Positions 16,748-45,972 of a DNA stretch of 64,000 bases are shown piece by piece; the stretch's first letter is position 1, and every line of letters starts with the position of its first letter. Position numbers and translations under genes: made by a program. The DNA comes from Bryobacterales bacterium (lineage in GTDB: Bacteria > Acidobacteriota > Terriglobia > Bryobacterales > Bryobacteraceae), in assembly GCA_963752205.1 (NCBI GenBank), contig CAVVZG010000031.1:11282-75281 (forward strand), given 5' to 3'. The notes under the pieces are model-generated. The model made no database searches and had not been told where the DNA came from. It saw nothing but the letters and a program-made list of their open reading frames with translations.

Positions 16748-16761
16748 AGCAACTCAGGCAA

Positions 16762-16806
16762 TTTGAACGGCCGACCCCCCTTCGCCCAAGGCAGTTTCCG
16801 GCAATT
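16762..16806 (-). repeat. Degraded copy of the tRNA-Pro 3' region (T-loop to anticodon) plus a shared non-tRNA flank.
   Basis: 16762-16793 tttgaacggccgaccccccttcgcccaaggcag vs 37162-37193 ttcgaacgcccgaccccctgcgcccaaggcag (about 29/33). The next 13 nt, tttccggcaattc, resemble the flank of the 29.8-kb copy (tttccgcgattc), not the tRNA. Confidence 0.6.
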
Positions 16807-17006
16807 CGTTATACAGGAATGTTTCTGAGTCGATTGAAAGATTTGATTGGACCCAGGCTTGGGTTGCAGCTAGACTTTAATCTCTAAAGTGTTACACTCG
16901 TCCGCCCCTGCCCGGTCTGCGGGAGCTTCCAACCCAGGTAGTTGAAATCGTTTTCGACGGTATGTTTCCGTCCAGGTTCCCGCAACCCATTGATCCCCAA
17001 AACACT

Positions 17007-18044
17007 ATGACAAAATACAAACTCGAATACATCTGGCTTGACGGAAAACAACCGGTTCCCGAGCTACGCGGGAAGACCCTGCTCAAACAATTTGAGAAAC
17101 CACCGACGCTGGCCGACCTGCCCAATTGGGGGTTTGACGGCAGTTCCACGATGCAGGCGGAAGGCAAGAGCTCCGATTGCGTGCTGAAGCCGGTGGCTCT
17201 CTATCCGGATGGAAGCCGCAAGGACGGTTATATCGTTCTGAGCGAAGTGATGCACCCGGATGGGACCCCGCATTCCACCAACATGCGCGCGACCATCGAG
17301 AACGACCCTGACCTGTGGGTTGGACTGGAGCAGGAATACTTCCTGTATCAAGACGGGCGTCCGCTGGGTTTCCCGGAAGACGGCTACCCCACCACTCCGC
17401 AAGGGCCCTATTATTGCGGTGTCGGCTACAAATACATGGGCAACCTGGCCCGTACGATCGTCGAAGAACACTTGGAGCTGTGTCTCGCCGCCGGTATCAA
17501 CCATGAAGGCATCAACGCCGAAGTGGCGAAAGGCCAGTGGGAATTCCAGATCTTCGCCAAAGGCTCGGCCAAGGCGGCCGATGACGTGTGGACGGCGCGC
17601 TATTTGATGATGCGTCTTTGTGAGAAGTACGAAGTAGATGTGCAATTGCACTGCAAGCCGATCAAGGGCGACTGGAACGGATCGGGCATGCACTGCAACT
17701 TCTCGACGAAATACCTGCGCGAAGTGGGTGGCAAGGAATACTTTGAAGCCCTCATGAAGGCGTTTTCCGACAACGTCGCCGCGCACATCGCTGTGTATGG
17801 CCCGGATAACCATCTGCGTTTGACCGGTCTGCACGAAACGCAGGCCATTGACAAGTTCAGCTATGGCCTTTCCGATCGCGGCGCTTCCATCCGCATGCCT
17901 GTGAACTTCATCAAGAACGGTTACAAGGGCTATCTGGAAGATCGCCGCCCGAACTCCGAAGGCGATCCCTACCAGATCGTCTCGCGCGTTCTGAAGACGA
18001 TCAATAGCGTTCCCAAGCCTGCTATGGCCGCTAGCGGGGTTTAG
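17007..18044 (+). CDS. glnII: Glutamine synthetase type II (eukaryote-like GSII).
   Basis: ORF 16962..18044. Start moved to ATG 17007 (MTKYKLEYIWLDG). Motifs GFDGSST, LEQEYFL, NAEVAKGQWEFQ, NGSGMHCNFS, GASIRMP. Confidence 0.9.
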   Translation: MTKYKLEYIWLDGKQPVPELRGKTLLKQFEKPPTLADLPNWGFDGSSTMQAEGKSSDCVLKPVALYPDGSRKDGYIVLSEVMHPDGTPHSTNMRATIENDPDLWVGLEQEYFLYQDGRPLGFPEDGYPTTPQGPYYCGVGYKYMGNLARTIVEEHLELCLAAGINHEGINAEVAKGQWEFQIFAKGSAKAADDVWTARYLMMRLCEKYEVDVQLHCKPIKGDWNGSGMHCNFSTKYLREVGGKEYFEALMKAFSDNVAAHIAVYGPDNHLRLTGLHETQAIDKFSYGLSDRGASIRMPVNFIKNGYKGYLEDRRPNSEGDPYQIVSRVLKTINSVPKPAMAASGV

Positions 18045-18091
18045 AACGGGAATAGTTTCTCAGCAATCGGGCCCAAAAAAGGGGAGGTGTT

Positions 18092-19281
18092 ATGCAGCTT
18101 ACAGAAACGGGACTTCCTTCCGAAGTAGAGTCTGAAAAGACTCAGGATAGTTTAGCGACGATCACATCCGGCGAACCCGAGATAAAAGATGAAACCGCCT
18201 TTCTCGAAGAGCCGGAAACTAGCTTTCAGACTGCCATACCGCTGGAAAGAATAGTCCCAAAGCAGGAAAAGAAAAAGCTCAAAGCCCTTCCTGAGAAAAA
18301 GAACCTAAAAAACAAATTGAAGGAGAAGAAAAGCTCCACCAAAGTGCTGGCGGGAGCGTTCCCCATGGTCGCGCTGATTGACGAACAGGTGCGAACCAGC
18401 ATTCCCGAAGAACTGGTTGCCAGGGTAAAGGCGGCAAAGAGCAAGAAACACATCATCAGCTCCAACTATCCCTATACGAAAGCAGATGAAGGAGTCGGAC
18501 GTATCTGGAAGAGATCGAACTGCTGCAAATTGAACTGGTCAAGATGCAGGCTTGGGTCAAGGAAGTTGGCGAGCGCGTCGTGCTGATCTTTGAAGGGCGC
18601 GATGCCGCGGGCAAGGGAGGAACGATCCAGCGGTTCACGGAAAACCTCAATCCTCGCGGCGCCAAGGTCGTGGCGCTCGCCAAACCCTCGGACACCGAGC
18701 GGGGCCAGTGGTATTTCCAGCGTTACATCGAAAAACTTCCCACCAAAGGTGAAATCGTCTTCTTTGACCGATCCTGGTACAACCGCGGCGGCGTCGAACA
18801 TGTGATGGGATTTTGCACCCCGCACGAATATCTGGAATTCATGCGCCAGACGCCGGAATTTGAGCGGATGATGGTGCGCAGCGGGATTCGATTCTATAAA
18901 TTCTGGTTTTCCGTCAGCCGGGAGGAACAGCTCCGGCGGTTTCTTGGCCGGGCGCAAGATCCCCTCAAGCAATGGAAACTCAGCCCGATGGATGTGGAAT
19001 CCCTGGGCCGGTGGGAATCCTATACCAAGGCCAAGGAAGCCATGCTTTTCTACACCGACACCGCGGATGCGCCGTGGACGATTGTGCGCTCCGACGACAA
19101 GAATCGCGCTCGCCTCAACGCGATAAAGCATATCCTGCACACCATTCCCTACGCGGGCAAGGACACGGATATCGTCAGTGCCCCAGATCCGCACATCATC
19201 GGGTCGGCCAAGGCGATTTACGAACACGGCGAAAATTCCCATTCGCACGCCGTTGCGCATCATGTTGCTAGCTCATCCTAA
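18092..19281 (+). CDS. ppk2: Polyphosphate kinase 2 (class I PPK2) with a long Lys/Glu-rich N-terminal extension. Frame break between 18476 and 18508.
   Basis: ORF 18544..19281 is the PPK2 domain (FEGRDAAGKGG, NPRG, ERGQWYFQRY, FDRSWYNR, WKLSPMD, APW..V.SDDKNRARLN). ORF 18092..18586 (GGGGAGG RBS before its ATG) ends in SNYPYTK, a motif that precedes the PPK2 core in S. meliloti-type enzymes as recalled. The core's YLEEIELLQIELVKMQAWV continues in another frame. Confidence 0.75.
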
Positions 19282-19665
19282 GCCAGACTTTTGGCCGGAT
19301 ATCTCGACCCGAATCGATGTGACTCTGTCAGGGGGTAGAACGGACGTTCGAGAAACTGGGGGAATCTGATCTGTGGCGGAAAACAAACCTAAAATCCAAG
19401 CGACGTTAGGCTTAACCGGCCTGACCATGAACCAAGTTCTCGCGTTTCATTCGCCCACTATTGAATCGAAAGAGCCGGGTGCCTTGAAAATCGCCGTCCA
19501 AAAGGGCGGGATTCGCTCTGACGGAGAACGTTCTTTCCCGCTGCCGGTCGAAACCGGGCGGGGGCAGGGCGCGTAACCGCCTTCTTTCCCTGCGGGGAGA
19601 ACCCTCGAGTTCCTCACTTTTGCAAACGGAAACGTGGGGCTGCTCTGTTCCAGAGCAGGGCCTAA

Positions 19666-20166
19666 CTAGTCGCCCGCCCCAACCATCGGAGCTAGCGTGG
19701 GCACTTCGACGTCCTTGAACACGGCTGTGCTATCGGATGCTTCCGGCATAACCGGGAACTTGAACCCGCACTTTGGACAAGGCTCCGCCAGCGCTTGCTG
19801 CTCTTGGTGAAGGTCGTAGGGCTTGTCTGTGATTAGGGCGCAACAGGGACACACTCGGATCAGCCGGGTATTCTTCAGTTCGAAGTTGGTGATGATATCC
19901 TCCATGATGGCGCCGCTGCGAACGGCCCACTCCTTGGCTTGCTTGTGGTAGGTGTTCATGTGCCAATCTTTGAGGGCTTCAAAGCCGGTCCAGAGGCTGA
20001 TCTCGTTGTACCAGGTGGGATCCTTGGGATGGACCCACCAAGTGAGGTGCAAGAACCCAGGCAGCGTCTTTAGCTGATTGCGCGTTTCTCCAAACAGCAA
20101 CTTAAATTTCTCGTAGCCGTCGGGGCTCGAGAACCGCACTCTTTGCATGCTTTGATAAATGGCCAT
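19666..20166 (-). CDS. ABM (antibiotic biosynthesis monooxygenase)-like domain protein with a C-terminal CxxC..CxxC zinc ribbon.
   Basis: ORF 19666..20211. Start moved to M16 (ATG 20166) behind GGAGAAGGAGA. Ferredoxin-like ABM pattern (FLHLTWWVH...ISLWTGFEALKDW). C-terminal CPCC...CPKC. Confidence 0.55.
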   Translation of the reverse strand: MAIYQSMQRVRFSSPDGYEKFKLLFGETRNQLKTLPGFLHLTWWVHPKDPTWYNEISLWTGFEALKDWHMNTYHKQAKEWAVRSGAIMEDIITNFELKNTRLIRVCPCCALITDKPYDLHQEQQALAEPCPKCGFKFPVMPEASDSTAVFKDVEVPTLAPMVGAGD

Positions 20167-20220
20167 CTGATCTCCTTCTCCGTCAAAGAAAATAGTAATC
20201 TCACCTAGCACTAAATACGT

Positions 20221-23200
20221 TCAGAAATCCAACCGCAGCGAGACCTGTCCCGTCCGGTTCCCTCCCTGCCCCGCGGTCTGCGCGGACTGCAAAGCTCCGA
20301 AGGTTGACGGGCTGCTGATGGCGGTGGCTGGCGGCGCAAAGTTCGTGTGATTCAAGACGTTGGTGAAGGTAGATTCGAATCTGAGCCGCATGCGCTCCCT
20401 GATTTGAAAGGTCTTCGACAACCCCGCCGAGACGGAGATTGTTCCCGGACCCTCCAGGATACCGACGCCCGCATCGCCGATTCTTCCCGCGCCCGCCGGT
20501 GTCGGTCCAAACGCGTTAATGTTCCACTCGAGACCGGGAGTCAGGCCTGAGGTCGGATTTCCAATCGCGTCCGGGCGCGCTGTGATGCCGCCCCGCCCTA
20601 CGATGTCGGTGTTCGATTGATCCGCCGTGGGGCTGATGGTGGGCGTGAGATAGGGCCCAGTTTGCAACAGCGTGACGGTGCTCACATTCCAACCGCCCAA
20701 CAGCGCGTTTACAATCGCGGAGTTGCTGTGGAAATTGCGGCCGGTGCCAAACGGCAACTGGTACATACCGGTCAAAAGGAACCGTTGCCGCGGCATGCCG
20801 GCGACGTTTCCGCGAGCCGCGCGGAGGTCGAATTGATCGTAGGAGGGCGTAAACAAGAGGTTTTCCGAAGTAAATCCCCCCGGAGCGTCGCCTTGGGCGT
20901 CGCTAATGTTATGGGCCCAAGTGTAGTTTCCCTGAAAGGATAGTCCGTGCGACGTCCTTTGCGTGGCTTCGAAGGACAGCCCCTGATAGTTGGCAAATCC
21001 CGCATTTGCGCTGTAATTGATTTCGATCCAATTCTGATAAGGAGCGCGCGGATCGACGTAGGGACTAGGTACATAGGGCTGCTTGCTCGGCGGGATCGCG
21101 TTGTAATCTTCCTTCACGTTCATCCGGTAGGAATTCATCCCGGAATAGGTAACTCGTGCGGCCAGGGCAGATGTCAACTGGCGTTCGATCGTTACGCTCC
21201 ATTGTGCTGTTTGAGGATCCTTGAAATTCAGGCTCATGCCATCGTAGAGCCCAGTCCCTCCGTACTGTGCGGTGGTGGATGCGGGAGAAGTTTGCGGAAA
21301 TGTGAACAGCGGCACACCGTTGTTGTTGTTCGAATACGTGTAGGGCGCACCCAGCGGAATGCCGAGAAAATCATAGGCCAGCTGCCCCAAGGGGGTTTGA
21401 GTGAAAATGCCAAACCCCGCGCGAATGACGGTCTTATTATCTCGAAACGGGCGGAAAGCGATACCGATCCGTGGATCGTAATCACCCCAATAGGTGTTCC
21501 GCAGGCTCTGAGACAGGTGATTCTGGCTCGCGGTTACTACATTGCTACAAGGAAGCGTCATGTCCCTCGTGGGCAGGCTGCAGGCATTGAAGGAGATCAG
21601 AAAGGCGTTGTAGTTGGCCTGCAGCAGCGGGCTGGACGGCACTGTTTTGTTGAGGAGGATGTCTGGAACTACGATGTCGCCGTTCCGCGGATCGAAGTTG
21701 GCAATGTCGCCTTGGTTCTCTGTAAATTCGGGAAGCAGCTCCCACCGCATTCCGAAGTTCACGGTGAGCCGGTCGTTTACCTGCCATTGATCTTGGGCGT
21801 AAAACCCCCATTGAACACTCGGTTCATTCGTGTTGGGACTGCTTCCGACAATAAAATCGGTATTGGGTGCGCCCAGCAGGAAATCGCCGAAGGCGCTCCC
21901 CGTGAATACGCCTTGGTTGAACGTGAAGGCGCCGAAATCATCCGATTGACCCCACCTCACTACAGTTTCATAGAAGACGCGGCGCGCGTCTATACCGAAA
22001 CGGAGAGTGTGCTTCCCCATCGTACGGCTGATGTTGTCCGTGAACTGCATGGTTTTTGACTGGCCCGGCCCGTCCTTGTCCCGGCCGATGGGCGTAAAGC
22101 CGGTGCCGTCGGAAAAGTTGAAGGTCGGAAACGCTCCGGTACTCGGGTGATTCGCGAAGCTAATACCGGTCAAGCCAAGTTGGTTGTCGGCCGCGGCGCC
22201 CTGGATTGGAAAAATAGTGTTAACTAGGCTATTGGTAAAACCGAAGCGAAACTCATTCACCATCTTGGGAGAGATGGCGTAGTTATAGGAAACGATCAAA
22301 CTCCGGTCATGTTCCGCATTCAGGTCGTTCGGCAATAGAGGATTCGCTGGGAGGCCCAATTGACCTGAGTCTGAGAGCAAGTTCTTCCAACTGAAACGGG
22401 CATAAATCTGCTGGTTGGAAGTGATGGACTGATCCAGCCTGACATCAAAGCCGTTGGTATTGGAAGGGATGGGCTGGAGCGTTTCATAGTTGTAGCCGCT
22501 CCCGGAGCCACTGACATTGGGCAGCGGGTAATACTCGTTGAGCAACCTTAGGGATACTGGATTCAGCATGGACGTCGGAATCGTGTTGTTCGCGAAAGGC
22601 AGTCCGCTATAGGGATTGATCAAGGAATTGGAGGGCAGACCCGTCTGCGGATTGACGAGAGGAAGCTCATTCAGATTTCCGTTTCGCTCCGCTAGCGTCG
22701 GTACCAAATATTGCTCTGGAGTCGAGGTCCTGCGGCGATTGCCCTCGTAATCGACGTAGAAAAATGTCTTGTCGTGGCCGTTGTACAAATGGGGAATCGT
22801 TACGGGACCGCCGAAGCTGCCGCCAAAAGTATTGAACCGTTTGGGCGCCTTTGACGTGAAGTTGAGAACGGTGGCGTCCAGCGCGTCATTCTGCAAATAC
22901 TCAAACAGGCTGCCGTGAAACTGGTTGGTTCCGCTTTTGGTGATAAACGTCACATCCGCCACTTGGGAAAATTCGGCGCTGTTGTTGAAGGCTGTAACTT
23001 TGAGTTCGGCCAGACCTTCGGACGACGGGTAGGCGTTCTGTAGAGAGCCGTTGGCGGTGACATTGGCCGTGGAAATTCCATCGACGGAATAACCAGTCAT
23101 CGAATAAGTGGCGCCTCCGACCTGTATGTTGCCCTGACTATCCGTGATGACGTTCGGAGATAAGGCAAGCGAGGCGAGCGGGCTCGTGGTTTGGGCTCTG

Positions 23201-23661
23201 AAGTTGAGCGGCATCTGTTGCAGTTGGTCATTTCCCCGGGTGTCGCCGACCGTACCGTTCTCGGTATTGATCTGCGCGGCTGCAGCCTCGACGTTCACGC
23301 TCTGTTGCACCTCCTGAATGGAAAACGCGATATCCACTCGGGCACTCTGACGGGCAACCAAGTCAATCGCGACCGTGGGGGATTTCGCAAATCCCGGACT
23401 GGCCCCCGAGACCTGATATTGTCCCGGCTTTAGGTTCTCAAACAAGTACGTTCCGCCATTGTCGGTGGCGACGGAGCGGTTCGTGTTCTCATCGACATTA
23501 TGAAGCGTGACCACCGCCTGGGACACGGGGAGACCTCCGGGGTCGCGGGCAGTACCGCGGATGTCACCAAAGGTCGATTGTCCGCAACAGATAACGGGCA
23601 AGAGCAAGTAAGCGAAAAGCGCAAAGCGCGCCGAAAGAAATCGAGTCTGTCGTTGGGCCAT
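20221..23661 (-). CDS. TonB-dependent receptor-like outer-membrane protein with an N-terminal CarboxypepD_reg domain (acidobacterial type).
   Basis: 1146-aa ORF with a signal peptide. GTARDPGGLPVSQAVVTLHN...TDNGGTYLFENLKPGQYQV. Plug-plus-barrel-sized body. C-terminal aromatic end ...VSLRLDF. Paralogous to 32221..35595. Confidence 0.85.
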   Translation of the reverse strand: MAQRQTRFLSARFALFAYLLLPVICCGQSTFGDIRGTARDPGGLPVSQAVVTLHNVDENTNRSVATDNGGTYLFENLKPGQYQVSGASPGFAKSPTVAIDLVARQSARVDIAFSIQEVQQSVNVEAAAAQINTENGTVGDTRGNDQLQQMPLNFRAQTTSPLASLALSPNVITDSQGNIQVGGATYSMTGYSVDGISTANVTANGSLQNAYPSSEGLAELKVTAFNNSAEFSQVADVTFITKSGTNQFHGSLFEYLQNDALDATVLNFTSKAPKRFNTFGGSFGGPVTIPHLYNGHDKTFFYVDYEGNRRRTSTPEQYLVPTLAERNGNLNELPLVNPQTGLPSNSLINPYSGLPFANNTIPTSMLNPVSLRLLNEYYPLPNVSGSGSGYNYETLQPIPSNTNGFDVRLDQSITSNQQIYARFSWKNLLSDSGQLGLPANPLLPNDLNAEHDRSLIVSYNYAISPKMVNEFRFGFTNSLVNTIFPIQGAAADNQLGLTGISFANHPSTGAFPTFNFSDGTGFTPIGRDKDGPGQSKTMQFTDNISRTMGKHTLRFGIDARRVFYETVVRWGQSDDFGAFTFNQGVFTGSAFGDFLLGAPNTDFIVGSSPNTNEPSVQWGFYAQDQWQVNDRLTVNFGMRWELLPEFTENQGDIANFDPRNGDIVVPDILLNKTVPSSPLLQANYNAFLISFNACSLPTRDMTLPCSNVVTASQNHLSQSLRNTYWGDYDPRIGIAFRPFRDNKTVIRAGFGIFTQTPLGQLAYDFLGIPLGAPYTYSNNNNGVPLFTFPQTSPASTTAQYGGTGLYDGMSLNFKDPQTAQWSVTIERQLTSALAARVTYSGMNSYRMNVKEDYNAIPPSKQPYVPSPYVDPRAPYQNWIEINYSANAGFANYQGLSFEATQRTSHGLSFQGNYTWAHNISDAQGDAPGGFTSENLLFTPSYDQFDLRAARGNVAGMPRQRFLLTGMYQLPFGTGRNFHSNSAIVNALLGGWNVSTVTLLQTGPYLTPTISPTADQSNTDIVGRGGITARPDAIGNPTSGLTPGLEWNINAFGPTPAGAGRIGDAGVGILEGPGTISVSAGLSKTFQIRERMRLRFESTFTNVLNHTNFAPPATAISSPSTFGALQSAQTAGQGGNRTGQVSLRLDF

Positions 23662-23809
23662 GGTTGTGCTCCTCGAATCGATTCGTGACGTCCGGAATTC
23701 GCAGACTTTGCGAGTGGGTGGAAAGGGCCAGCGAGCCGGCTAACGTAGCCGATAGCTCAACGGGCAACTATCGTTGATTTTCTAACTCTAAGCTCGGGAG
23801 GGAAAGGAT

Positions 23810-25322
23810 TCAATGACCACTCTGCGTCCGCCCGTGATAGCCACTTTCATCGCGGATGATTTTTCGCAAGCGCCGCACTTGGGCGGGCATTTCATCGGTC
23901 TTTGTGCCGCCAAAACCAAGAATGAAGCCCTGGCGGACATTCGTGCCTACGTAAGCGGAAGAGAGGGGCCACAGCCAAAGACCCTCTTGCGCCGCGCGCC
24001 GGGATATCTTCTGATCGGACAACCCGGGCGGTAGCGTGATTACCAGGTGCATGCCGGCTTCCGCGCCCAGGATTTCGATTTCGGACCCGAATTCCTTCCG
24101 CAGCGCTTGCGTGAGCGCGCCGCGCCGCTCCGCGTACAACTGCTTGGTCCTGCGGACGTGGCGCGTGAAATGACCGGCGCTTATGAAATCGGCGAGCGCT
24201 GCCTGATAAAGATGTGACGGGCAGAGATCATTGGCTTGCCGCACCGCGAGAAAGCGGCCTACAAGAGCGGCGGGAATCACGACGTAGCCGATCCGAAGCG
24301 ATGGAAAAAGTGTCTTGCTGAAGGTTCCGATGTAGATTACGCGAGCGCCGGAATCCAGCCCTTGCATGGACGCGACCGGCATGCTTTCATAGCGGTACTC
24401 GCTGTCATAGTCGTCCTCGACGATCCACGCATTGGCCTCATGCGCCCATTCCAGTAGTTGCAAGCGGCGCGCGGCACTCATCGTGGTCCCGAGTGGATAC
24501 TGGTGCGAGGGTGTGACATAGGCCACGCGCGCGTTCCCGGCACATCCTGATGCCGGCCGCGACATCCAATCCTTCACTGTCAACCGGAACCGGAACCAGC
24601 CGGCAACCGGAAAGCGTCAGCGTGTGCCGCAGGAATACGTAGCCTGGCTCCTCGATCCAGACTGGGCAATCCGGGTCGAGCAGCACGCGCGCCGACAGAT
24701 CCAGCGCATGCTGCGAACCATTCACCACCATGATCTGAGAGGCTTCGCAATGAACGGCGCGCGCCGTTCGAAGATAGAGTGCGATCACCTCGCGAAAGTC
24801 CTCCGAACCCATCGGATCCGAATAATTCATCGAGCTGGCGCGCACCTTTCGCGCATGGTGCGTCACCAGGTCAGACCAGACGCGAAACGGAAAATGGTCG
24901 TATGCGATCTGCCCAACGCTGAATGCGCCCGACCCGCGGAACCACGGGGTTCCCTCCACCGGCAGAAGTCTGGAGACGCGTGAAATAGCATCGGATTCTA
25001 GATCGCTCGCAACGTTCGCCATTGCGGGACGCGCGCTAAGGATCTGGTCGGACAGTAGACGCGTTACAAACGTGCCCGCGCCTGAACGACTTTCGATAAA
25101 CCCTTCGGCGAGGAGTTGAGCATAGGCGCCGAGTACGGGAATCCGCGAAATTCGTAGCTCGGCGGCTAAAGCTCGCGACGAGGGAATCTGCTGACCTGGT
25201 TGTAACCTGCGTTCGAGAATCATCGCGCGGAACGCGTCGTAGATTTGCCGGTGGAGCGGCTTTTCGCCTTTACGGTCCACAGCGATCATGGGCGCCGCAG
25301 CGCCATGCGGAGTCTTTCTCAT
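23810..25322 (-). CDS. MocR/PdxR-type regulator (GntR wHTH fused to a fold-type I aminotransferase domain). Frame break in a CGCGCGCG run at 24526-24533.
   Basis: ORF 24438..25322 carries the GntR HTH (LHRQIYDAFRAMILERRLQPGQQIPSSRALAAELRISR) and the start of the AAT domain. After ...VPVPVDSEGLDVAAGIRMC, the protein continues as ARVAYVTPSHQYPLG...TFSKTLFPSLRIGY in the frame of ORF 23810..24583. Confidence 0.8.
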
Positions 25323-29651: not shown

Positions 29652-29778
29652 AGCTTTCCTCACCAGCTGACTAGCCGCTTCCGCCGCCGGACGTGCCCAT
29701 AGGGGTGTAAAGAACCGACCGAGACAGGTTCCCTTTGCTTGTGTTTCAACATGGAGATTCGCGGAAGATTACGCCTAT

Positions 29779-29827
29779 TGGTCGGGGCGGGGCGATTCGA
29801 ACGCCCGACCCCCTGCGCCCAAGGCAG
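29779..29827 (-). repeat. Exact 49-nt direct repeat of the tRNA-Pro 3' end (CCA through the anticodon); att-like site.
   Basis: tggtcggggcggggcgattcgaacgcccgaccccctgcgcccaaggcag is identical to 37145-37193, then diverges (tttccgcg vs gtgcgcta). No acceptor 5' strand or D-arm, so it is not a functional tRNA. Confidence 0.9.
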
Positions 29828-30128
29828 TTTCCGCGATTCCTCGGAATACTCTATTTTCTTCCGCTTAGGTTTCAAGTAGATGCGGCACGCTTGTTGAGGT
29901 CGAGGAAGGATGTTGAAGCTGGCGGCTTTGGGCAGCTACATTTATGTCTACAGTTGGATGGCGTGGACTCCCCTCGGAAGTAGCAACGCCACGATTGAAT
30001 GACTTTTGTTTTCCCACCAGACGAAGGATGGATCAACCCTGTCGCAAAGTTCCGGCATTTTAGTTTTTGGAACGCTGAGCGATAAAGGGAGACTCTAGCG
30101 AGAGACGGTCATCCGGGTGCCGAAAGTG

Positions 30129-31319
30129 CTAGCGTTCGCCACCTATTTCCGTGTGAATGCCAAAGGTAGCCACGAGCACGGCAAGAGTGAATCCGCTCAA
30201 CGCAAGAAAGCTGGATTGAAAGGTTCCCGACCAATCCACCATATGGCCGATGAGGGGCGGGGCTGCGAGGATCATTACGATCCCCAGCATGTTCACCAGA
30301 CCCATGGCAGCGCCCGACCGAGCGGGATAGAGCGCGGCAGCCCGATTGAACACCCCGGCATACGGTAACCCCGCGCCCACGCCCAACAGGAAAACGCCCA
30401 CCGCTGCTCGAACCAAAGACGCCGCCCCCAATCCGAAACAAAGGCAGGCGATTACACACAGCGCCAGGCCTATGCGCAAAGTGCGCCGTGCCCCCAAACG
30501 CGGCACCAACATTCCACCAATGGGCCTCGTGGCGACGCCGATCACCAGAACCAGAGAACCAATCCTGCCGGCTTGGACTGCCGTGAGATGGAATGATTTC
30601 GTCAGATAGGTACTGATCCAGACGCCAATCACGATGACCAGCCCAAACGACGCCATTTGCACGAGTCCCAACAGCCATAGTTGCGGACTCCGTAACATGC
30701 CGAGCAAGGGCGCGGGCTTATGAATTCGAACCGGCGCGGCCGGAGTCATGAACGTCCAGATAAGAGCCGCCGCCGCCGCGACCGCCGCGGTACAAAGAAA
30801 AGCCCCACGCCAACCAAAGGCGCCCGAGAGCAACGGTACCGCATAAATAACGAATCCGGACCCCAGCAAAACGGAACCGCCATAACAGCCCTGTGCCAGA
30901 TGCAAATGCGGACCTGCAAACATATTCGCGACATAACGTGCCCCGGCAACAAAACTGATTCCCGTTCCAATTCCTACAAAAATCTTGAGCAGCAAAAGCT
31001 GCGTGTAGCTGCCCGCAAACGCCAGTGAGATATTGCCCAGACAGACGATTGCCAGCGCAATGGATACTACGCGGCCAGAGCCAAATTTATCGGCGATAGT
31101 TCCACCGGGAAGCTGGATACCCCCATGTGTGAGAAAGATCCCAGTGGTGAGAAGCCCGGCGGCGGCAAGACTAAATTTGAACTCCGCAATCAGCGCCGCC
31201 ACCATGGGAGCGTGGTTGGTGTAGTTCGCCGAAAAAGCGAAGCCGACCACACAAACCGAGAAAAGCCCGAGCATCTCGGCTCGCGTCAGACGGGTCTCAA
31301 CCTGCTGTGCTGTCGCCAT
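30129..31319 (-). CDS. MFS transporter.
   Basis: 396-aa ORF, hydrophobic throughout with about 12 predicted TM segments and MFS-like loop motifs (GTIADKFGSGR). Confidence 0.85.
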   Translation of the reverse strand: MATAQQVETRLTRAEMLGLFSVCVVGFAFSANYTNHAPMVAALIAEFKFSLAAAGLLTTGIFLTHGGIQLPGGTIADKFGSGRVVSIALAIVCLGNISLAFAGSYTQLLLLKIFVGIGTGISFVAGARYVANMFAGPHLHLAQGCYGGSVLLGSGFVIYAVPLLSGAFGWRGAFLCTAAVAAAAALIWTFMTPAAPVRIHKPAPLLGMLRSPQLWLLGLVQMASFGLVIVIGVWISTYLTKSFHLTAVQAGRIGSLVLVIGVATRPIGGMLVPRLGARRTLRIGLALCVIACLCFGLGAASLVRAAVGVFLLGVGAGLPYAGVFNRAAALYPARSGAAMGLVNMLGIVMILAAPPLIGHMVDWSGTFQSSFLALSGFTLAVLVATFGIHTEIGGER

Positions 31320-31334
31320 AAGCTTTTGTATAGC

Positions 31335-32216
31335 TTAACTCCTCTGCAAGTTTTTAAAGTGGTCCGCGACGTCGCGCGGATGAGTGAGCCAGATTTTGTT
31401 ACCAAGGCTCGCCACATGCTCCAACGCCCGGCGCAAGTGCCGCAAGCGGAAAGGCTGCCCCACGATATAAGGGTGCAGCGCAATTCCAGCGACAAGCGGT
31501 TGTTGTTCCGCTTGCGCCAACATCTCTTGTAGCTGATCAATAATCATGTCAGCGAATTCCGCGGCACCCACTTTCCTCACAACGATCGCCGGAATATCGT
31601 TGATCTCTTGAGGATAGGGGATGGAGAGCAGCGGTCCGTTTGCGGTTTGTAGCCAGGTCGGCTGATCGTCGTGGCACCAGTCGAGCACATAGTCGTAGTT
31701 CGCCGCCTTCAGTAGATCAGGAGTGTCGAAGCTCTCCGAAATCCATGGCCCTAACCAGCCGCGCGGTCTCCGAAGTTCAAACTTTTCGATCGCGGCGGCC
31801 ACGTCTTCAATCAGGGCATTTTCATCAGCGCGGGCCAGCGCTGATTGACGCTCGCTGTTGGTGCGTCCATGCCCTACCACCTCATCGCCCCGCTTCCGAA
31901 ACGCATCCATGACCTCGGGACAGTAATTGTAGATTTCGGAATTGACGAGAACGGCTACCGGCAGATTAAGCCGGTCAAATTCCGCCAGCATGCGCCAGAT
32001 GCCGACTCTGTTGCCATAGTCCCGCCAGGCGTAATTCAATACATCCGGCTCAAGCCCACCTGACGGCGCAAGCTGCGCGCCCAGCCCTTCTCCAAAAGAA
32101 AAATGTTCGAGGTTCACCGCGATGTAGACGGCGAGCCCCGCGCCATTGGGCCATTTTCGGGTGGCCCTCCTGTGAATCGGCGCGTAGTCGTATCGTCCGT
32201 GTGTTCTCAGTCCCAC
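31335..32216 (-). CDS. Polysaccharide deacetylase family protein (PuuE/allantoinase-like subgroup).
   Basis: 293-aa ORF. ...VNLEHF..., DYGNRVGIWR, GDEVVGHG, HPYIVGQPFR pattern typical of NodB-fold, PuuE-like enzymes. Confidence 0.75.
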   Translation of the reverse strand: MGLRTHGRYDYAPIHRRATRKWPNGAGLAVYIAVNLEHFSFGEGLGAQLAPSGGLEPDVLNYAWRDYGNRVGIWRMLAEFDRLNLPVAVLVNSEIYNYCPEVMDAFRKRGDEVVGHGRTNSERQSALARADENALIEDVAAAIEKFELRRPRGWLGPWISESFDTPDLLKAANYDYVLDWCHDDQPTWLQTANGPLLSIPYPQEINDIPAIVVRKVGAAEFADMIIDQLQEMLAQAEQQPLVAGIALHPYIVGQPFRLRHLRRALEHVASLGNKIWLTHPRDVADHFKNLQRS

Positions 32217-32220
32217 CTTT

Positions 32221-35200
32221 TTAGAAGTCGATTCTGAGAGCTAGCTGGCCGGTGCGATTGCCGGCGTTTTCCGCAGTTTGTACGCTGGATGTTTTCCCAA
32301 AAGTATCGGGAGACGAGACATCCGTGGATGGAGGAGCAAAATTCGGATGGTTCAGCAAATTTGTAAAGGTCGCCTCGAATCGCATTCTGATGCGTTCGGT
32401 AATGGCGAAGGTCTTCGACAACCCGCCTGCTACCGTAATCGTTCCCGGCCCTTCCAGAATTCCCACCCCCGCATTGCCGACACGGCCCGCGCCAACGGGC
32501 GTTGGAGCGAAGGCGTTGATATCGAACCAGTCATCCGGCGTAGGATTGCTGATGTTTCCGTTGCCGATGCGATCCGGTCTCAGCAACGCGCCTCGCCCAA
32601 TGATATTGGTACCGCTTTGATCCTCCGACGGACTGATGGATGGCGTTAGCCACGGCCCCGTTTCGAGCATCGTAACTGTGCTGACTTGCCAGCCGCCCAG
32701 AATACCGTCTACCAGTTTTCCGGAATGCGTCAAATATGTCCGGCCCTTGCCAAAAGGCAGCTGGTACATGGCGGTAATCAGACCGCGATGACGGCGCGTT
32801 GCGTAGTCGTTGCCGCGGTTAGCCGCCAAGTCGAAACGATCGCCGATCACCGCTCCAGAACCAACCTCCGAAGACAGCGCGCTGGGAACGTCAGATCCCG
32901 CGTTTGTCAAGTTTTTTGCCCAGATGTAGCTACCTTGCAGAAACAGTCCTTTTGCCATCCGGTGGTCCACTTGGAGATTGAGCGATTGATAATTAGCGAA
33001 CCCAAGATTTTCGCGGATTCCTATCGCAGACCAGTTCCCGTAGGGCAAAAGAGCGGGGTTATATCCGGACGTACTAGGTCTTACCTGATTTTCGTCGACC
33101 ATGTTGGTGAGCCGGTAAGAATTCATGCCAATATAACTGGCGCGAACGGAATAACTGGAAGGCAGCTCGCGTTCGATCGTCACGTTCCACTGTGCTGATT
33201 GGGGGTCGCGAAACGACGTAGAAACGCCGGCCAGAAATTGCTCGCCGCCGATGAGATCGGGCGTCAGGCCTCCGTTGCCCGGGAGTGCCTGCGGAAACTG
33301 AAACCCAGGTGCGGATCCATTGCCGCCGCCGTTCACGTAGAAGCGCGCATCGGTCGTATGAATGCCGGTATCGGTCCAGGCAAGTTGTCCTAGCGATGTC
33401 ATGGTGAAAATACCAAACCCGGCGCGGAAGACCGTCTTATTTCCGAACGGCCGCCAAGCGACGCTGATCCTGGGATCGAAATTCTTCCAATAGTATTGAT
33501 GAAGGCCCTTGGGCAGGCCGACGGAACTTGCCGAGACGATGTTCGAACAGGGTAGCGACGGGTTCACGCCGGGGCACGGCGCATTGATCAGATACTTAAA
33601 CGATGCCGCGGCCGGCAAAGTCTGGTCCGGCACGATCACGTTGCCTGTTTTCAAATCGAAGTTGGTGATGTTCCCGTGCGTTTCGTCGAAGGGCGGGTCA
33701 AATTCCCAACGCATCCCGAGGTTGATGGTTAACTTGTCATTGATGCGGAATTCATCCTGCGCATAGACGCCATAGTGGTGCGCTCTCTGGTCGAGATTCG
33801 GTCCGGTTGTCGCAAAGTATCCGGTGGATGGAATTCCCAATAAGAAGTCCGCGAAGGCATTTCCACTGTAGGCGCTTCCCTGATTAAATACGAAAGATCC
33901 GAAGTCATCGGAGCCGCCGAAGTTCAGCACATCCTGATATTGAAGAGCCCGAAAATCCGCCCCGAACTTCATGCTATGCCGGCCTTTGGTCCAAGAGAGG
34001 TTGTCGGTAAATTGGTACGTCCTCGAAAAAGTATTGCCAACTTTTCCTTGCCCGACGGGGGTGAATCCTGTGCCATCGCTAAAATCGAAACTGGGAAAAG
34101 CACCCGCCTCGGGATGCTTGGTGAGATCGAGTCCCGTCAAGCCCAAAGCTTGGTCCTCAGCCGCACCATTGATGGGGAAGCTTTGATTCAACAGCCAGCG
34201 GCTGAACCCGAATCGCATTTCGTTTACCACTGATGGCCGGATTGCGTAGTTATAAGAGAGAATCATATTCTGGTCCGTCTCATTCACCGTGCGCGACGGA
34301 AGCAGCCCCTCGGACTGGAGGCTATCCAGAGACTTCCAGCTCCAGCGTCCGAAAATCTGTTGATTCTGCGTAATGTAATGATCCATCCGGATGTCATAGC
34401 CATCTGTGGTGATGGGCGTTCGCACCAAGGTTCGGTAATTGGCAAAGGTTGAGCCGCTATCGAAATTAGGCAGCGGATAAACCTGCGCCAGCAGCTTACT
34501 GCTAACGGAGCTGATACGGCCCGTCGGAATCTGATTGTTTAAGAACGGGAGCCCGGTCGTCGGATCGACAGCATCCCCTCCCGGCAACCCCGCCAGATTC
34601 CCAGTTCTCATGGCGGCAGTGGGAACCGAGAATTGCTCCAGCGTTGATCCGGGGTGGCGATTGGTCTCATAATCGCCGAAGAAGAACGTCTTGTTCCTGC
34701 CGTTATATCCGGGGACAACCACCGGCCCGCCTACGCTGCCGCCGAACGTGTTCCACACCTTGGCCTGCTTGATGTCTGAGCCATAGGTTGTCGCATCCAG
34801 GGCCGCGTTTTGAAAGTATTCAAAGAGGCTGCCGTGTAGATTGTTCGTGCCGCTCTTTGTGGTAACCGTAATGTCTCCCACCTGCGCGAACTCAGCGTTA
34901 TTGTTCACGGAAGAAACACGGAACTCAGACAATAGCTCAGATGACGGATACATGTTTTGATTCGCGCCGTTGTTGCGGACGTTGGCCGTGGAAATTCCGT
35001 CCAACGTGAAATCGATCATAGCCGGGAACCCGCCGTTGATGGTTAGGCCGCCGTTGCTATCTTGTTCCACCCCGGGAACCGCGACCAAGACGCCCAACGG
35101 ACTGGTGGTCGCACCCCGATAGTTAACCGGAAGCTGGGTTACTTCCTGGGAACCTTTGGTGTCTGAGATGGTGCCGTTCTCGGTGTTGATGACCGCTGCC

Positions 35201-35595
35201 GTGGCCGTGACCTCCACGGCCTGACTGAGCGCCGCAACGCTCAAAGTTATGTCCGCGCGCCGTTCCTGCCGTGAATCCAGAGCTACATCCGAGAGCTGAA
35301 ACGCACCGAAACCTTCTTTCCTCGCATTAATTGTGTACTTCCCGGGCTTTAGATTGAGCGCTTGATAGCCGCCTTGCGCGTTGGTCTCGATGGTGCGCGA
35401 AACGTTCTCATCGGTGTTGGTTATCTCGACCTTTGCGCCTGGTACGGCGGAATTGGAACTATCCGACACAACGCCGATGATCGATCCGAAGGTTGACTGC
35501 GCGGCGAGGTGCGGCGTCAAGAATAGGCACGGCCCCAATAAATAAAACAATACTGCACAAGACCTGGTTCTTAGTCTCACTTGTCCCCCTGGCAA
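32221..35595 (-). CDS. TonB-dependent receptor-like outer-membrane protein with an N-terminal CarboxypepD_reg domain.
   Basis: 1124-aa ORF with a signal peptide. GVVSDSSNSAVPGAKVEITN...NAQGGYQALNLKPGKYTI. C-terminal ...LALRIDF. Colinear paralog of 20221..23661. Confidence 0.85.
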   Translation of the reverse strand: MPGGQVRLRTRSCAVLFYLLGPCLFLTPHLAAQSTFGSIIGVVSDSSNSAVPGAKVEITNTDENVSRTIETNAQGGYQALNLKPGKYTINARKEGFGAFQLSDVALDSRQERRADITLSVAALSQAVEVTATAAVINTENGTISDTKGSQEVTQLPVNYRGATTSPLGVLVAVPGVEQDSNGGLTINGGFPAMIDFTLDGISTANVRNNGANQNMYPSSELLSEFRVSSVNNNAEFAQVGDITVTTKSGTNNLHGSLFEYFQNAALDATTYGSDIKQAKVWNTFGGSVGGPVVVPGYNGRNKTFFFGDYETNRHPGSTLEQFSVPTAAMRTGNLAGLPGGDAVDPTTGLPFLNNQIPTGRISSVSSKLLAQVYPLPNFDSGSTFANYRTLVRTPITTDGYDIRMDHYITQNQQIFGRWSWKSLDSLQSEGLLPSRTVNETDQNMILSYNYAIRPSVVNEMRFGFSRWLLNQSFPINGAAEDQALGLTGLDLTKHPEAGAFPSFDFSDGTGFTPVGQGKVGNTFSRTYQFTDNLSWTKGRHSMKFGADFRALQYQDVLNFGGSDDFGSFVFNQGSAYSGNAFADFLLGIPSTGYFATTGPNLDQRAHHYGVYAQDEFRINDKLTINLGMRWEFDPPFDETHGNITNFDLKTGNVIVPDQTLPAAASFKYLINAPCPGVNPSLPCSNIVSASSVGLPKGLHQYYWKNFDPRISVAWRPFGNKTVFRAGFGIFTMTSLGQLAWTDTGIHTTDARFYVNGGGNGSAPGFQFPQALPGNGGLTPDLIGGEQFLAGVSTSFRDPQSAQWNVTIERELPSSYSVRASYIGMNSYRLTNMVDENQVRPSTSGYNPALLPYGNWSAIGIRENLGFANYQSLNLQVDHRMAKGLFLQGSYIWAKNLTNAGSDVPSALSSEVGSGAVIGDRFDLAANRGNDYATRRHRGLITAMYQLPFGKGRTYLTHSGKLVDGILGGWQVSTVTMLETGPWLTPSISPSEDQSGTNIIGRGALLRPDRIGNGNISNPTPDDWFDINAFAPTPVGAGRVGNAGVGILEGPGTITVAGGLSKTFAITERIRMRFEATFTNLLNHPNFAPPSTDVSSPDTFGKTSSVQTAENAGNRTGQLALRIDF

Positions 35596-35769
35596 AATGT
35601 GTTTGGAATCAAAAAACGATCACGAACACCATCAACAGAGATGGACAGCTTAAGTGAGAGGCGGACGGGAATGCCTCGTTCAATCGAAGAAGCAACTCTA
35701 CAGCGAAAAAGCTTTACACAAAGGTTAAAACCGGGTGACAACGAAGTCAAGGCTATTTTCGGGAAAAAC

Positions 35770-36717
35770 TCACGGGGCAGGCGGCGGAACGCTTTGCGGG
35801 AACGGATGTTTCTCATCCAGGGGCCAAATGGTGAATTCGGCCAGCGCGTAGCGCTCCCGGCTTCCTTTCATTTCTTTCAGCGCGTCGTTCATCTCGAGCA
35901 AATGCGCTCGCGAGAGCGGCAGAGCGTGCTCCTCGGGCGCAAACGTCGTACCCACCGGATAATCCAGGTAAGGAGTGGTGGTCTGCTCCACGTGGCAACC
36001 GAGAATATGCGTCACCACTTTGCCGCGCGTGAAATCCACCATGCGCTGGTTGCTCTTGATAAAGGCATCCATATCACGCACGAAGACCCGCCCGGGATAA
36101 AGACTGTCCCCGGTGAAGAGAATCCCCGTCTGCCGGTCATACAGCGCGATGCTGAGCGAGTCGTGACCGGGAATCGGAATGATGTCGATTACGCGATTCC
36201 CCAAATCGATTTTTCCAATGTCCTCCGGCCACTTGGCGATAGCGAAAGCTTTCTGCAGCCCCTCTACGCTCAGCGGCACCATGGTCACGTTAGGCAGGAT
36301 CGCCATCTGGCTGTCGCCCGCTACGTGATCTTCGTGCGAGTGCGAATGGGTCACGACCAGTGGAATCGATTCGCGGTGATTGTGCCGCAGCCACCGCGAC
36401 ATCACCGCGGTGATCTCGCGCGCCGTTTCCGGATGGCCGGACCCTGTATCCTCCAACAAGGCCCGATCCTTGCCGAAGAAAAGATACAAGAACGGCTTCT
36501 CCGGATCGGTGCATCCGGATTCCCTGATGATGTACAGATCTTCGTTATATTCTTGGACCTGCCAGTCCGGAACCTCCGCGCACTTGGGGCCGCCGGAGAT
36601 CCATTTTGGGGGAAGCTGGCCGTGCCGCGCGCCCTTGTCATCTGCCTGCTGAGCCTCAACAGCAACTGTGATCAAGAAAAGAGCACTTAAAAATGAGTGT
36701 GAGAACGAAACGCGCAT
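35770..36717 (-). CDS. Secreted metallo-beta-lactamase-fold hydrolase.
   Basis: ORF 35770..36765. Start moved to M17 (ATG 36717, MRVSFSHSFLSALFLITVAVEAQ). HxHxDH motif THSHSHEDHVAGD. Later GHDS and HILGCH. Confidence 0.8.
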   Translation of the reverse strand: MRVSFSHSFLSALFLITVAVEAQQADDKGARHGQLPPKWISGGPKCAEVPDWQVQEYNEDLYIIRESGCTDPEKPFLYLFFGKDRALLEDTGSGHPETAREITAVMSRWLRHNHRESIPLVVTHSHSHEDHVAGDSQMAILPNVTMVPLSVEGLQKAFAIAKWPEDIGKIDLGNRVIDIIPIPGHDSLSIALYDRQTGILFTGDSLYPGRVFVRDMDAFIKSNQRMVDFTRGKVVTHILGCHVEQTTTPYLDYPVGTTFAPEEHALPLSRAHLLEMNDALKEMKGSRERYALAEFTIWPLDEKHPFPQSVPPPAP

Positions 36718-36803
36718 GTGCCTCCTGAAGTAACAACAAGATGAGGCAACACGGCCACGAATCACGACGGAGACTGTTGAGTCAGGTTACCATATCCGCA
36801 AGC

Positions 36804-37140
36804 TCACGGTTGAGCACTCAACCACCGCAATTTCTTGAAAGCACCGCTCACCCAGTTGCCGCTAAATCGGTCCCAGCGGCCATACCCAATCATCGCGGGA
36901 GATGTAGTCGAATTCCCTGAACGGATCATCTGCAGTTGCGCAGCCCTTAGCGCCTCGTCTTAACTCTTTCCTTGTTGCAGCTGACCATAGAACTGCTTCA
37001 TGAATTCCGACGCCCGCGAGTCATCCAGGCTCCATAATGATGCCAGAACCGAGTGTGCACCCGCGTACTGAAATGCGCGCGTCAATCCAATCAAACCTTC
37101 ACCGCCCGTTTCCTTGCCGAATGCCCACATCAGCGTGATT
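36804..37140 (-). pseudogene. 5'-truncated CHAT-domain (caspase-like protease) gene remnant abutting the tRNA-Pro 3' end.
   Basis: The minus-strand frame starting immediately next to the tRNA reads ...GKETGGEGLIGLTRAFQYAGAHSVLASLWSLDDSRASEFMKQFYGQLQQGKS*DEALRAAQLQMIRSG...SGNW. This is the typical C-terminal CHAT signature (GEGL.GL.RAF..AGA.SV.ASLW.V.D....FM..FY..L..G.SK.EALR.AQL). There is an in-frame TAA at 36960-36962 and no N-terminal part. Confidence 0.55.
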
Positions 37141-37144
37141 TTAT

Positions 37145-37221
37145 TGGTCGGGGCGGGGCGATTCGAACGCCCGACCCCCTGCGCCCAAGGCAGGTGCGCT
37201 ACCAGGCTGCGCTACGCCCCG
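37145..37221 (-). tRNA. tRNA-Pro (anticodon UGG), CCA encoded.
   Basis: The reverse complement CGGGGCG TA GCGC AGCCTGGTA GCGC A CCTGC CTTGGGC GCAGG GGGTC GGGCG TTCGAAT CGCCC CGCCCCG A CCA folds into a perfect cloverleaf (7/4/5/5-bp stems, TTCGAAT T-loop, anticodon TGG). Confidence 0.93.
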
Positions 37222-45879: not shown

Positions 45880-45972
45880 TTGGCTATCTCGCGCCAAGCC
45901 AACAATATCATTTCTGCTCCTCTTTAAAAAAGTGCTCGCAGGGTACATTAAATTTCTGCCATAATATAGCCG

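Follow-up and report, generated by a model that had tools for sequence, protein, structure and literature searches.

Serial tRNA-Pro fragments bound a foreign, integrase-less 20-kb region in a Bryobacterales bacterium: a candidate degenerate array of tRNA-integrated islands

How three partial copies of a tRNA gene came to lie behind the intact gene, with about 20 kb of transport and metabolic genes between them and no integrase in sight, is the question raised by a 64,000-nt stretch of DNA from a Bryobacterales bacterium (assembly GCA_963752205.1, contig CAVVZG010000031.1, positions 11,282-75,281 of the forward strand; hereafter the window). The host is a Bryobacterales-type acidobacterium from soil, and ARAGORN finds exactly one tRNA gene in the whole window, the tRNA-Pro(UGG) at 37145-37221 on the minus strand (Rfam RF00005 at 63 bits). 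A preliminary description of this locus had already named that gene as the intact copy and had proposed that the partial copies are attR-type scars, left by successive integrations of related elements whose integrases are missing. This proposal is supported by the common CTGCC start of the fragments, a family of conserved flanking arms, a synteny break at the tRNA, the foreign composition of the bounded DNA and a gradient of decay. The partial copies are likely to be attachment (att) site scars of successive site-specific integrations at the anticodon loop of tRNA-Pro(UGG), which subsequently decayed, and the whole appears best read as a degenerate, integrase-less tandem array of tRNA-integrated islands, comparable to the accretion described for cis-mobilizable elements (CIMEs).

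The repeats themselves are unambiguous. A 49-mer running from the anticodon-stem base C29 to the CCA end occurs exactly at two places on the minus strand (37145-37193 and 29779-29827), where no such repeat is expected by chance (0 in 100 shuffles), and BLAST extension takes the identity between this second copy and the tRNA beyond the 49 nt first described, to 52 of 52 nt (29776-29827). The third copy (25828-25878), previously recorded with a 3-nt difference, departs from the tRNA by one substitution and a 2-nt insertion. The decayed fourth copy, for which an end at 16793 had been given, was recovered with its end moved to 16794 (16762-16794, minus strand); it retains approximately 87% identity to the tRNA over 38 nt, lacks the final ~14 nt (the acceptor strand and CCA) and matches copy 2 at 88.6% over 44 nt, 6 nt of which belong to a non-tRNA arm (E = 1e-7, 27-kb database). 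Allowing one mismatch at most, the 12-mer CTGCCTTGGGCG occurs four times against 0.6 expected, a count reached in none of 100 shuffles. As had been described, copies 2-4 are all on the minus strand, co-oriented and 3' of the tRNA-Pro, and their decay grows with distance from it.

The partial copies had been noted to have the motif cag[t/a]ttccg in common, and this motif proves to be the last 9 nt of a far longer conserved arm that is complete in copy 2. The arm of copy 3 has lost ~90 nt internally while keeping both of its ends, with 22 nt identical to the related genome L002, and a weak inverted partial arm is discernible in its downstream flank (nhmmer E = 0.83); the degenerate arm of copy 4 falls below nhmmer detection. 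A scan of metagenomes with a pattern composed of the last 5 nt of the common arm and 12 nt of the core, by which intact tRNAs were excluded, returned ~50 genuine tRNA-Pro 3' halves (45-49 of 49 nt identical), nearly all preceded by the same ~130-nt arm, of which only 5 nt had been selected for. From CTGTAGATAAwwwTGTAGCTG at its start, this arm runs through three TTCAACAGG-like repeats in tandem and a pair of TTGAAA boxes to GCCGGAAW at its end. A profile of the arm detected 60 full copies in 62 loci, including copy 2 of the window (E = 5e-25) and a fragment in L002 (E = 1e-28), as well as partial copies directly after the intact tRNA in the related genomes L001, L002, and L020. The related attP arms suspected at the outset are borne out more strongly than proposed, as a ~130-nt arm family at about 60 metagenomic sites.

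Independent contigs resemble each other only within a unit spanning about -130 to +120...+250, and the DNA to either side of it is unrelated. The two ends of the unit have distinct conserved consensus sequences; the second arm takes the form of an inverted partial arm in nine units and of a direct one in three, while copy 2 of the window has none and copy 3 a weak one. A selected hairpin or co-evolving terminal inverted repeats were considered as explanations for these ends and set aside, the comparison of identities within and between units yielding no significant co-variation (0.676 vs 0.650, p = 0.065). Judged from these alignments, the unit ends may instead be the protein-binding arms of an attP-sized site, as opposed to a selected hairpin or transposon ends. 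Co-oriented arrays occur elsewhere, with three units in 10.5 kb in L138, two units 1 kb apart in L146/L191, and two units 98 nt apart in L112. Each fragment has the T-loop variant found in the tRNA of its host: TTCGAAT for the window and L002, TTCAAAT for most others. The arm was found nowhere in the ~1.4 Mb of other acidobacterial loci that had been retrieved for different purposes, and no conserved gene lies beside the arm-bearing sites, where the clusters of open reading frames (ORFs) consist of module-translation artefacts, IS3-type transposases, and NtrC-type regulators.

A core-only subclass was observed among these units (L110, L131, L157, L166, L170, L174, L198, L138:6324 and 10450, and L112:6228). 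Its members possess the full arm and the anticodon stem-loop (CTGCCTTGGGCGCAGG), followed by non-tRNA sequence in place of the T arm and acceptor strand, and then rejoin the conserved flank (GATTCAATAGCTTAGAAAC...AGCTTGTTGAACCTTGAGGA) that is also found after copy 3 of the window and after the L002 fragment. This organization would fit a site in which crossover takes place in the loop and the stem arms serve for core binding.

Comparison with relatives places a sharp boundary at the tRNA. Three metagenome-assembled genomes of other species (L001, L002, and L020) have the same tRNA-Pro beside a PSD/PSCyt protein at 97% amino acid identity to that of the window, and the nucleotide homology, 87-90% upstream of the tRNA, ends at 37119/37120, 26 nt past the CCA. 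The bounded 20 kb are absent 3' of the tRNA-Pro in all three, and each carries different DNA there: a reverse transcriptase and a type I restriction-modification system in L020; a kinase-like gene, a broken HsdR, IS21, a deaminase, and an rve transposase in L001; and a 1186-aa repeat protein with a LamG/VanZ protein in L002. The last of these genomes also possesses a second tRNA-Pro fragment 8 kb downstream of its tRNA, with both flanks matching those of copy 3 (L002:1435-1560 against window 25759-25887, 83% by BLASTN) and with cargo on either side that is unlike between the two genomes.

Both outer junctions of the region are damaged. L001, L002, and L020 keep 62-93 nt after the tRNA, comprising a hairpin and the motif CTGTAGAT...TGTAGCTG, with CTGTAGATAAAAATGTAGCTG as the motif of this flank common to the relatives, while the window keeps only the first 26 nt. 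A CHAT-domain fragment without its N-terminus and with an in-frame stop begins exactly where the flank homology ends; it is a pseudogene marking a deletion breakpoint, and the tRNA-proximal junction is therefore a breakpoint within a formerly longer insert. At the distal end, the kinase homology in L082-L085 ends at 16761, directly before copy 4, and the fusion of copy 4 to the kinase 3' flank is a second deletion. The outer junctions are thus both deletion breakpoints and not clean att junctions, which provides a concrete reason for the absence of at least the newest integrase. The orthologues of the kinase range from 79 to 99%, and the sole strain-level contig recovered (L081, 99.6%, a 5-kb contig) has the same distal junction as the window. 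Exact-protein look-ups of the kinase, with two alternative starts, and of the pyruvate kinase returned no record.

Between the copies lie three segments, designated C (7.3 kb), B (3.9 kb), and A (9.0 kb) in order from the tRNA, and Pfam and NCBIfam agree with the metabolic and transport functions first assigned to them (Table 1). All three are compositionally foreign: the GC contents of segments A, B, and C (0.560, 0.556, and 0.557) compare with 0.599 and 0.603 in the flanks and fall below every one of 300 size-matched flank samples, and the tetranucleotide correlation with the flanks is 0.82-0.89, lowest in segment B, against at least 0.91 in a null that is slightly generous in that the sampled flank chunks also form part of their own reference. 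The MFS transporter, TonB-dependent receptor, and MBL hydrolase operon of segment C is also present in L240-L242 at 72-85% nucleotide identity, within a larger catabolic cluster and with arm, fragment, and tRNA all absent there. The idea that cargo and arm travel as one was consequently rejected for segment C; cargo and att module are therefore not a fixed unit, and the cargo of this segment was either captured from a chromosome or the interior of the island was reshuffled after integration.

Table 1. Coordinates of the tRNA-Pro gene, its partial copies and their arms, and the cargo of the three bounded segments.
Feature	Position in window	Strand	Basis
Intact tRNA-Pro(UGG), proposed integration target, attL side	37145-37221	-	ARAGORN; Rfam RF00005
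26-nt remnant of conserved tRNA-downstream flank (putative P' arm)	37119-37144	-	End of L001, L002, L020 homology
CHAT-domain C-terminal fragment	36909-37118	-	Six-frame Pfam PF12770, positions 203-272 of 289, E = 2.9e-20
Segment C cargo	29954-36908	-	Pfam, NCBIfam; GC 0.557
MBL hydrolase (segment C)	35770-36765	-	Pfam, NCBIfam
TonB-dependent receptor (segment C)	32221-35595	-	Pfam, NCBIfam
PuuE-like deacetylase (segment C)	31335-32216	-	Pfam, NCBIfam
MFS transporter (segment C)	30129-31319	-	Pfam, NCBIfam
Full conserved arm (putative P arm) of copy 2	29829-29953	-	nhmmer arm profile, positions 1-127, E = 4.7e-25
Copy 2, displaced tRNA-Pro 3' half	29776-29827	-	52/52 nt as tRNA
Segment B cargo	25919-29775	.	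Pfam; GC 0.556
Pyruvate kinase (segment B)	28230-29651	+	Pfam
Two ORFs without family assignment (segment B)	26232-27110, 26987-27727	+	Pfam
Copy 3 arm remnant, CTGTAGATGATTTTGTGGCTG joined to ...GGCCGGAAT	25879-25918	-	Alignment; nhmmer positions 1-25, E = 0.076
Copy 3, tRNA-Pro 3' half, 1 substitution and 2-nt insertion	25828-25878	-	Alignment
Flank downstream of copy 3, common to L002 fragment	25759-25827	-	BLASTN 83%
Segment A cargo	16890-25758	.	Pfam, NCBIfam; GC 0.560
MocR-type regulator, two ORFs (segment A)	23810-25322	-	Pfam, NCBIfam
TonB-dependent receptor (segment A)	20221-23661	-	Pfam, NCBIfam
ABM-like (segment A)	19666-20211	-	Pfam, NCBIfam
PPK2 (segment A)	18544-19281	+	Pfam, NCBIfam
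GlnII-like enzyme (segment A)	16962-18044	+	Pfam, NCBIfam
Copy 4 degenerate arm (CTTTAGAGATTAAAGTCTAGCTG ... TTGCCGGAAA)	16795-16889	-	By eye and MAFFT
Copy 4, decayed tRNA-Pro 3' half, cut in T arm, fused to kinase 3' flank	16762-16794	-	Alignment; L082-L085 kinase homology; L081
Ser/Thr protein kinase gene, first of distal flank	15749-16747	+	Pfam; orthologues 79-99%

The preliminary description had reported no integrase, excisionase, or transposase, and none was found in the window with Pfam applied to all ORFs and, in six frames, to the ORF-free and unassigned stretches. A custom hidden Markov model (HMM) built from control integrases detected no tyrosine recombinase among all ORFs of at least 60 aa, tblastn of seven integrases against the window and its relatives gave chance matches only (E > 0.04), and PHROGs assigned no phage gene and no integrase to the unassigned ORFs of the window. 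Prophage structural, replication, and lysis genes are likewise absent by Pfam and PHROGs, the genes being metabolic, transport, and regulatory only. Neither did the exact 49-mer match any sequence in IMG/VR, where the arm-plus-core pattern gave only chance matches within coding sequence. No Rfam family matches the module, and a CrfA match at 34592-34700, under the gathering score and within a receptor gene, was treated as chance.

A role for integrases at this kind of site is indicated by other genomes. Five IMG/VR viral contigs (L221, L223, L228, L229, and L235) have a tRNA-Pro fragment whose identity starts at CTGCC, as in the window, and in the four tested with Pfam (L229, L223, L235, and L228) a PF00589 tyrosine integrase adjoins the fragment; in L229 tRNA and fragment are 10.2 kb apart. 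The arms of these viral fragments differ, and they therefore represent different element families using the same sublocation. The crossover would accordingly be placed at an anticodon-centred sublocation, its exact point being deduced from where identity begins. Within the arm family itself, the stop codon of an integrase in L194 lies ~8 nt from the CCA of the fragment, in convergent orientation, and L097 has a homologous 101-aa integrase relic at the equivalent position; relics of the L194/L232 type were found in no other arm locus. After integration, an arrangement like that of L194 would place the integrase beside the intact tRNA, where the window has its deletion. A further integrase, that of L203, was rejected as the cognate enzyme: its homologues in L243 and L244 (87-91% amino acid identity) have neither module nor tRNA within 10 kb, their nucleotide homology with L203 starts 176 nt beyond the module, and the gene belongs to an unrelated neighbouring element. 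The L243 and L244 contexts of this integrase (L243:11197-12433 and 17448-19314; L244:2948-5894) are defence-rich mobile elements with DarT/NADAR, ubiquitin-like Prok-E2/ThiF modules, restriction-modification genes, an OLD-family nuclease, and relaxase/TrwB.

The established model of integration into tRNA genes (tDNA) supplies a mechanism for the window. A tyrosine integrase would recombine the attP of an element, consisting of a ~130-nt P arm, a core (the anticodon stem-loop and the remaining tRNA 3' half), and a P' arm, with the tRNA gene; the 3' half brought by the element would regenerate the tRNA, while the original 3' half, now behind the P arm, would be displaced to the far end of the element. 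Repeated at the regenerated tRNA, such integrations would stack elements with the newest beside the tRNA, so that segment C would be followed by B and then A in increasing age. With the newest insertion beside the tRNA, decay rising with distance from it is to be expected. Later decay would have removed the integrases; the sequence itself shows that DNA was deleted from 26 nt past the tRNA into the CHAT gene, that the oldest scar lost its 3' end and was fused to the kinase 3' flank, and that the arm of copy 3 was shortened internally. In this scheme the junctions appear to have been made by a tyrosine integrase, the newest segment seems to be the one that adjoins the tRNA, and the integrases were presumably lost as opposed to never present. 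The region now amounts to a 20-kb block of foreign DNA, probably fixed, in which transport and metabolic genes lie between CIME-like sites.

Several findings weigh against successive integration. Recombination at this locus is deduced from sequence, and no empty site, in which the tRNA would be followed directly by the kinase flank, was recovered from the relatives. Neither the window nor the DNA up to 8-10 kb from the tRNA of L001, L002, and L020 yielded an integrase, excisionase, or relic of either, and the window has no phage, conjugation, or mobilisation gene and thus no direct sign that the segments were ever autonomous. Elsewhere (L240-L242) the segment C cargo forms an ordinary chromosomal operon that has no att sites, and an integrase abuts the fragment in only 2 of ~50 arm-bearing sites.

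Some of these findings are accommodated by the main rival to successive integration, in fact a variant of it, in which integrase-less cassettes defined by the ~250-bp module were stacked at the tRNA-Pro and mobilised by a recombinase that acts in trans from a gene elsewhere, as on an integron-like, IMEX-like, or active-CIME gene-capture platform. Such a system would account for the ~48 of 50 module sites without an integrase abutting the fragment, for four related genomes with a common tRNA-proximal arm followed by unrelated integrase-less cargo, for inter-contig similarity that stops sharply at the module borders, for the very short spacings of 98 nt (L112) and 1 kb (L146), for a core-only subclass that keeps the arm and anticodon stem-loop as a minimal crossover region, and for segment C cargo that elsewhere is a plain chromosomal operon. 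It is nevertheless considered unlikely, as the scan pattern picked P-arm junctions, at which an integrase located at the tRNA-proximal end is not expected, the metagenome contigs are short, and the tRNA-proximal end of the window is demonstrably deleted, such that loss suffices here; moreover, no trans-acting integrase was identified and no cassette was found at two array positions. The more specific version of this idea is, by a small margin, the more doubtful of the two: soil Acidobacteriota would possess an undescribed gene-capture system, a tRNA-anchored functional analogue of the integron that uses the module as its recombination site and in which integrase-less, module-defined cassettes of 0.1-9 kb are stacked at the tRNA-Pro and exchanged in trans. 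The module comprises an arm of 130 nt that includes tandem TTCAACAGG-like repeats, a core formed by the tRNA-Pro anticodon stem-loop, and a second arm in which the CTGTAGAT...TGTAGCTG motif is present as a direct or an inverted copy.

Explanations that dispense with site-specific integration fare considerably worse. That the module is a self-transposing, tRNA-derived repeat resembling a miniature inverted-repeat transposable element (MITE) or a short interspersed nuclear element (SINE), with ordinary chromosome between its copies, is suggested by its discrete 235-290-bp size, by the nine units at whose end the first 45-90 nt of the arm recur in inverted form, and by the IS3, ISL3, and IS91 transposases near several sites. 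This is very improbable given that the multi-copy loci are all co-oriented (eight independent orientation choices, ~1 in 256 if random), that the copies in the window and L002 are exclusively 3' of the cognate tRNA and absent from the ~1.4 Mb of other acidobacterial DNA, that fragments match the tRNA variant of their own host, that no target-site duplication was visible by eye in four units (L110, L140, L151, and L203), that the two ends have distinct consensus sequences without co-variation (p = 0.065), and that the bounded segments are foreign in composition and absent from relatives. Even less credence is given to the reading of the module as a structured RNA, in which a long stem would close a tRNA-like domain and the copies would be paralogous RNA genes. 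The class-B and class-F units do fold to a long closing helix (minimum free energy of -103 to -132 kcal/mol), and a small hairpin just upstream of GGAAW is variable by eye with apparently complementary changes, but no Rfam family matches, the window copies are without the right-hand end of the helix, co-variation of the two ends is not significant, the acceptor-stem 5' strand is missing, and the copies decay with distance from the tRNA. A local segmental duplication of the tRNA 3' region, or chance similarity, can be regarded as effectively refuted: segments A and C both hold a TonB-dependent receptor of the same family, with ~67% nucleotide identity in patches, yet the segments have no other sequence in common, the 52-nt exact match compares with 0 expected in shuffles, and the copies carry a non-tRNA arm common to dozens of unrelated contigs.

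Successive integration followed by decay also has precedents. For tDNA-integrated islands, the work of Williams from 2002 is reportedly to be named beside the Islander catalogue. That catalogue counts 2083 islands whose sites are anticodon-centred and 3760 that have 3' fragments, requires an integrase in every island, and reports four tandem arrays of at least three members in 2168 genomes, with an integrase needed per member (Hudson et al. 2015, PMC4383910). As in Islander-type islands, the window has an intact tRNA at one end and displaced, direct-orientation 3' tDNA fragments at the other, an identity block from the anticodon stem to the CCA, foreign composition, and a synteny break at the tRNA. 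The Islander definition places an integrase inside the island, whereas the window array has a fragment for each segment and an integrase in none; an array of this kind would therefore be filtered out by the Islander method.

A closer parallel is offered by the ssrA-specific tandem islands of Dehalococcoides, in which several islands lie downstream of one small-RNA gene, each is bounded by a directly repeated ssrA 3' end with a conserved non-target motif just upstream, some members are without the integration module and were read as cis-mobilizable elements, and any integrase present adjoins the att site by its 3' end (McMurdie et al. 2011, PMC3146451). The tandem 3'-end repeats, the motif upstream of each, and the integrase-less members resemble the window, and the integrase abutting the att site by its 3' end recalls L194. 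The two systems differ in target (tmRNA in Dehalococcoides, tRNA-Pro here), in recombinase (CcrB-like serine as opposed to the tyrosine recombinases beside fragments here), and in the length of the conserved arm (15 nt as opposed to ~130 nt), and some Dehalococcoides members keep an integration module while the window array has none.

CIMEs and tandem accretion are said to have been treated by Pavlovic and colleagues in 2004 and by Bellanger and colleagues in 2011. The process involves integration, decay, and further integration beside the target gene (reviewed in PMC5704250). The window resembles CIMEs in that segments bounded by putative att sites, and devoid of integration or transfer genes, follow one another in tandem behind a tRNA 3' end, and the history proposed for CIMEs is the one put forward here for the window. 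Segment B is flanked by copies 2 and 3, while the tRNA-side arm of segment C is cut at 26 nt and the distal site of segment A is truncated; unlike in CIMEs, the outermost att sites are themselves damaged. Integration and transfer genes are absent (Pfam, six-frame scan, HMM, and PHROGs). A tRNA-proximal deletion is seen in the CHAT remnant, with no relic of an integrative and conjugative element (ICE) or integrative and mobilizable element (IME) pointing to a parent, and the window also differs from CIMEs in showing no parent ICE/IME, relaxase, or conjugation gene. Functionally, the array seems to work like a decayed tandem island or CIME array, as distinct from a verified member of either class.

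Integron arrays have in common with the window co-oriented stacks of short, integrase-less, unrelated segments and a single kind of recombination site. Unlike integrons, there is no intI beside the array (in the window, and within 8-10 kb of the tRNA in L001, L002, and L020), the sites are sequence-conserved and tRNA-derived in contrast to the structure-conserved attC hairpins (no co-variation), and the segments hold several genes in their own orientations. The architecture is thus already known in kind, and the widespread, mostly integrase-less att module is its sole moderately novel aspect, one that may deserve follow-up.

For the host, successive integration would mean that 20 kb of transport and metabolic genes, including two TonB-dependent receptors, an MFS transporter, a deacetylase, a pyruvate kinase, PPK2, and a GlnII-like enzyme, entered by horizontal transfer at one tRNA hotspot, in three or more steps, and have probably become fixed since. 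Integrase-less tandem arrays escape island finders that demand an integrase, and the arm profile provides a handle for mapping such regions in the Acidobacteriota, a soil phylum of high abundance, few cultured members and little-described mobile elements. Were most of the modules integrase-less and nonetheless active, this would point to a trans-mobilised cassette system.

Several additional observations concern the genes of the segments. A frameshift splits the MocR-type regulator into two overlapping ORFs, and in the PPK2 region (18092-19281) the gene begins immediately behind an in-frame stop and may have an N-terminal portion in a different frame; these disruptions could be real pseudogenes, as would suit an old island, or, should the assembly be Nanopore-based as are those of the relatives, homopolymer errors. 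The TonB-dependent receptors of segments A and C have the same orientation, the CarboxypepD_reg/OMP_b-brl_4 architecture, and a length of ~1130 aa, and at ~67%, patchy nucleotide identity they are paralogues of a family typical of Acidobacteriota and no recent duplication.

Module sites appear to sit where mobile DNA accumulates, with IS3-, IS91-, and ISL3-family transposases 0.2-1.5 kb from several of them (L112, L151, L153, L159, and L165) and a cluster of adjacent tyrosine recombinases in L178/L144. Among the relatives, the defence-type island of L020 (L020:1883-9692) comprises a 611-aa reverse transcriptase, HsdM in two pieces, HsdS, HsdR, and a small ORF that has an ExoX-like C-terminal motif, and the 1186-aa ORF of L002 (L002:5469-8007) contains three tandem 852-bp units at 99.8-99.9% identity, reflecting either a very recent internal expansion or an assembly artefact. 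In L082, an 85-nt sequence between the kinase orthologue and a PSD-protein paralogue (L082:13280-13364), called 'tRNA-???' by ARAGORN, has a good T arm and a CCA-like end (GGTTCAAGTCCCTCCGCCCGCACCA) and may be another tRNA-derived remnant. On the other side of the tRNA-Pro, ~750 bp of the window (45183-45934) are absent from L001, L002, and L020, in which homology continues on both sides; this small indel coincides with a GC dip to 0.543 and overlaps an unassigned 222-aa ORF (45454-46122, minus strand) flanked by an ECF sigma factor gene and a GAF-domain gene.

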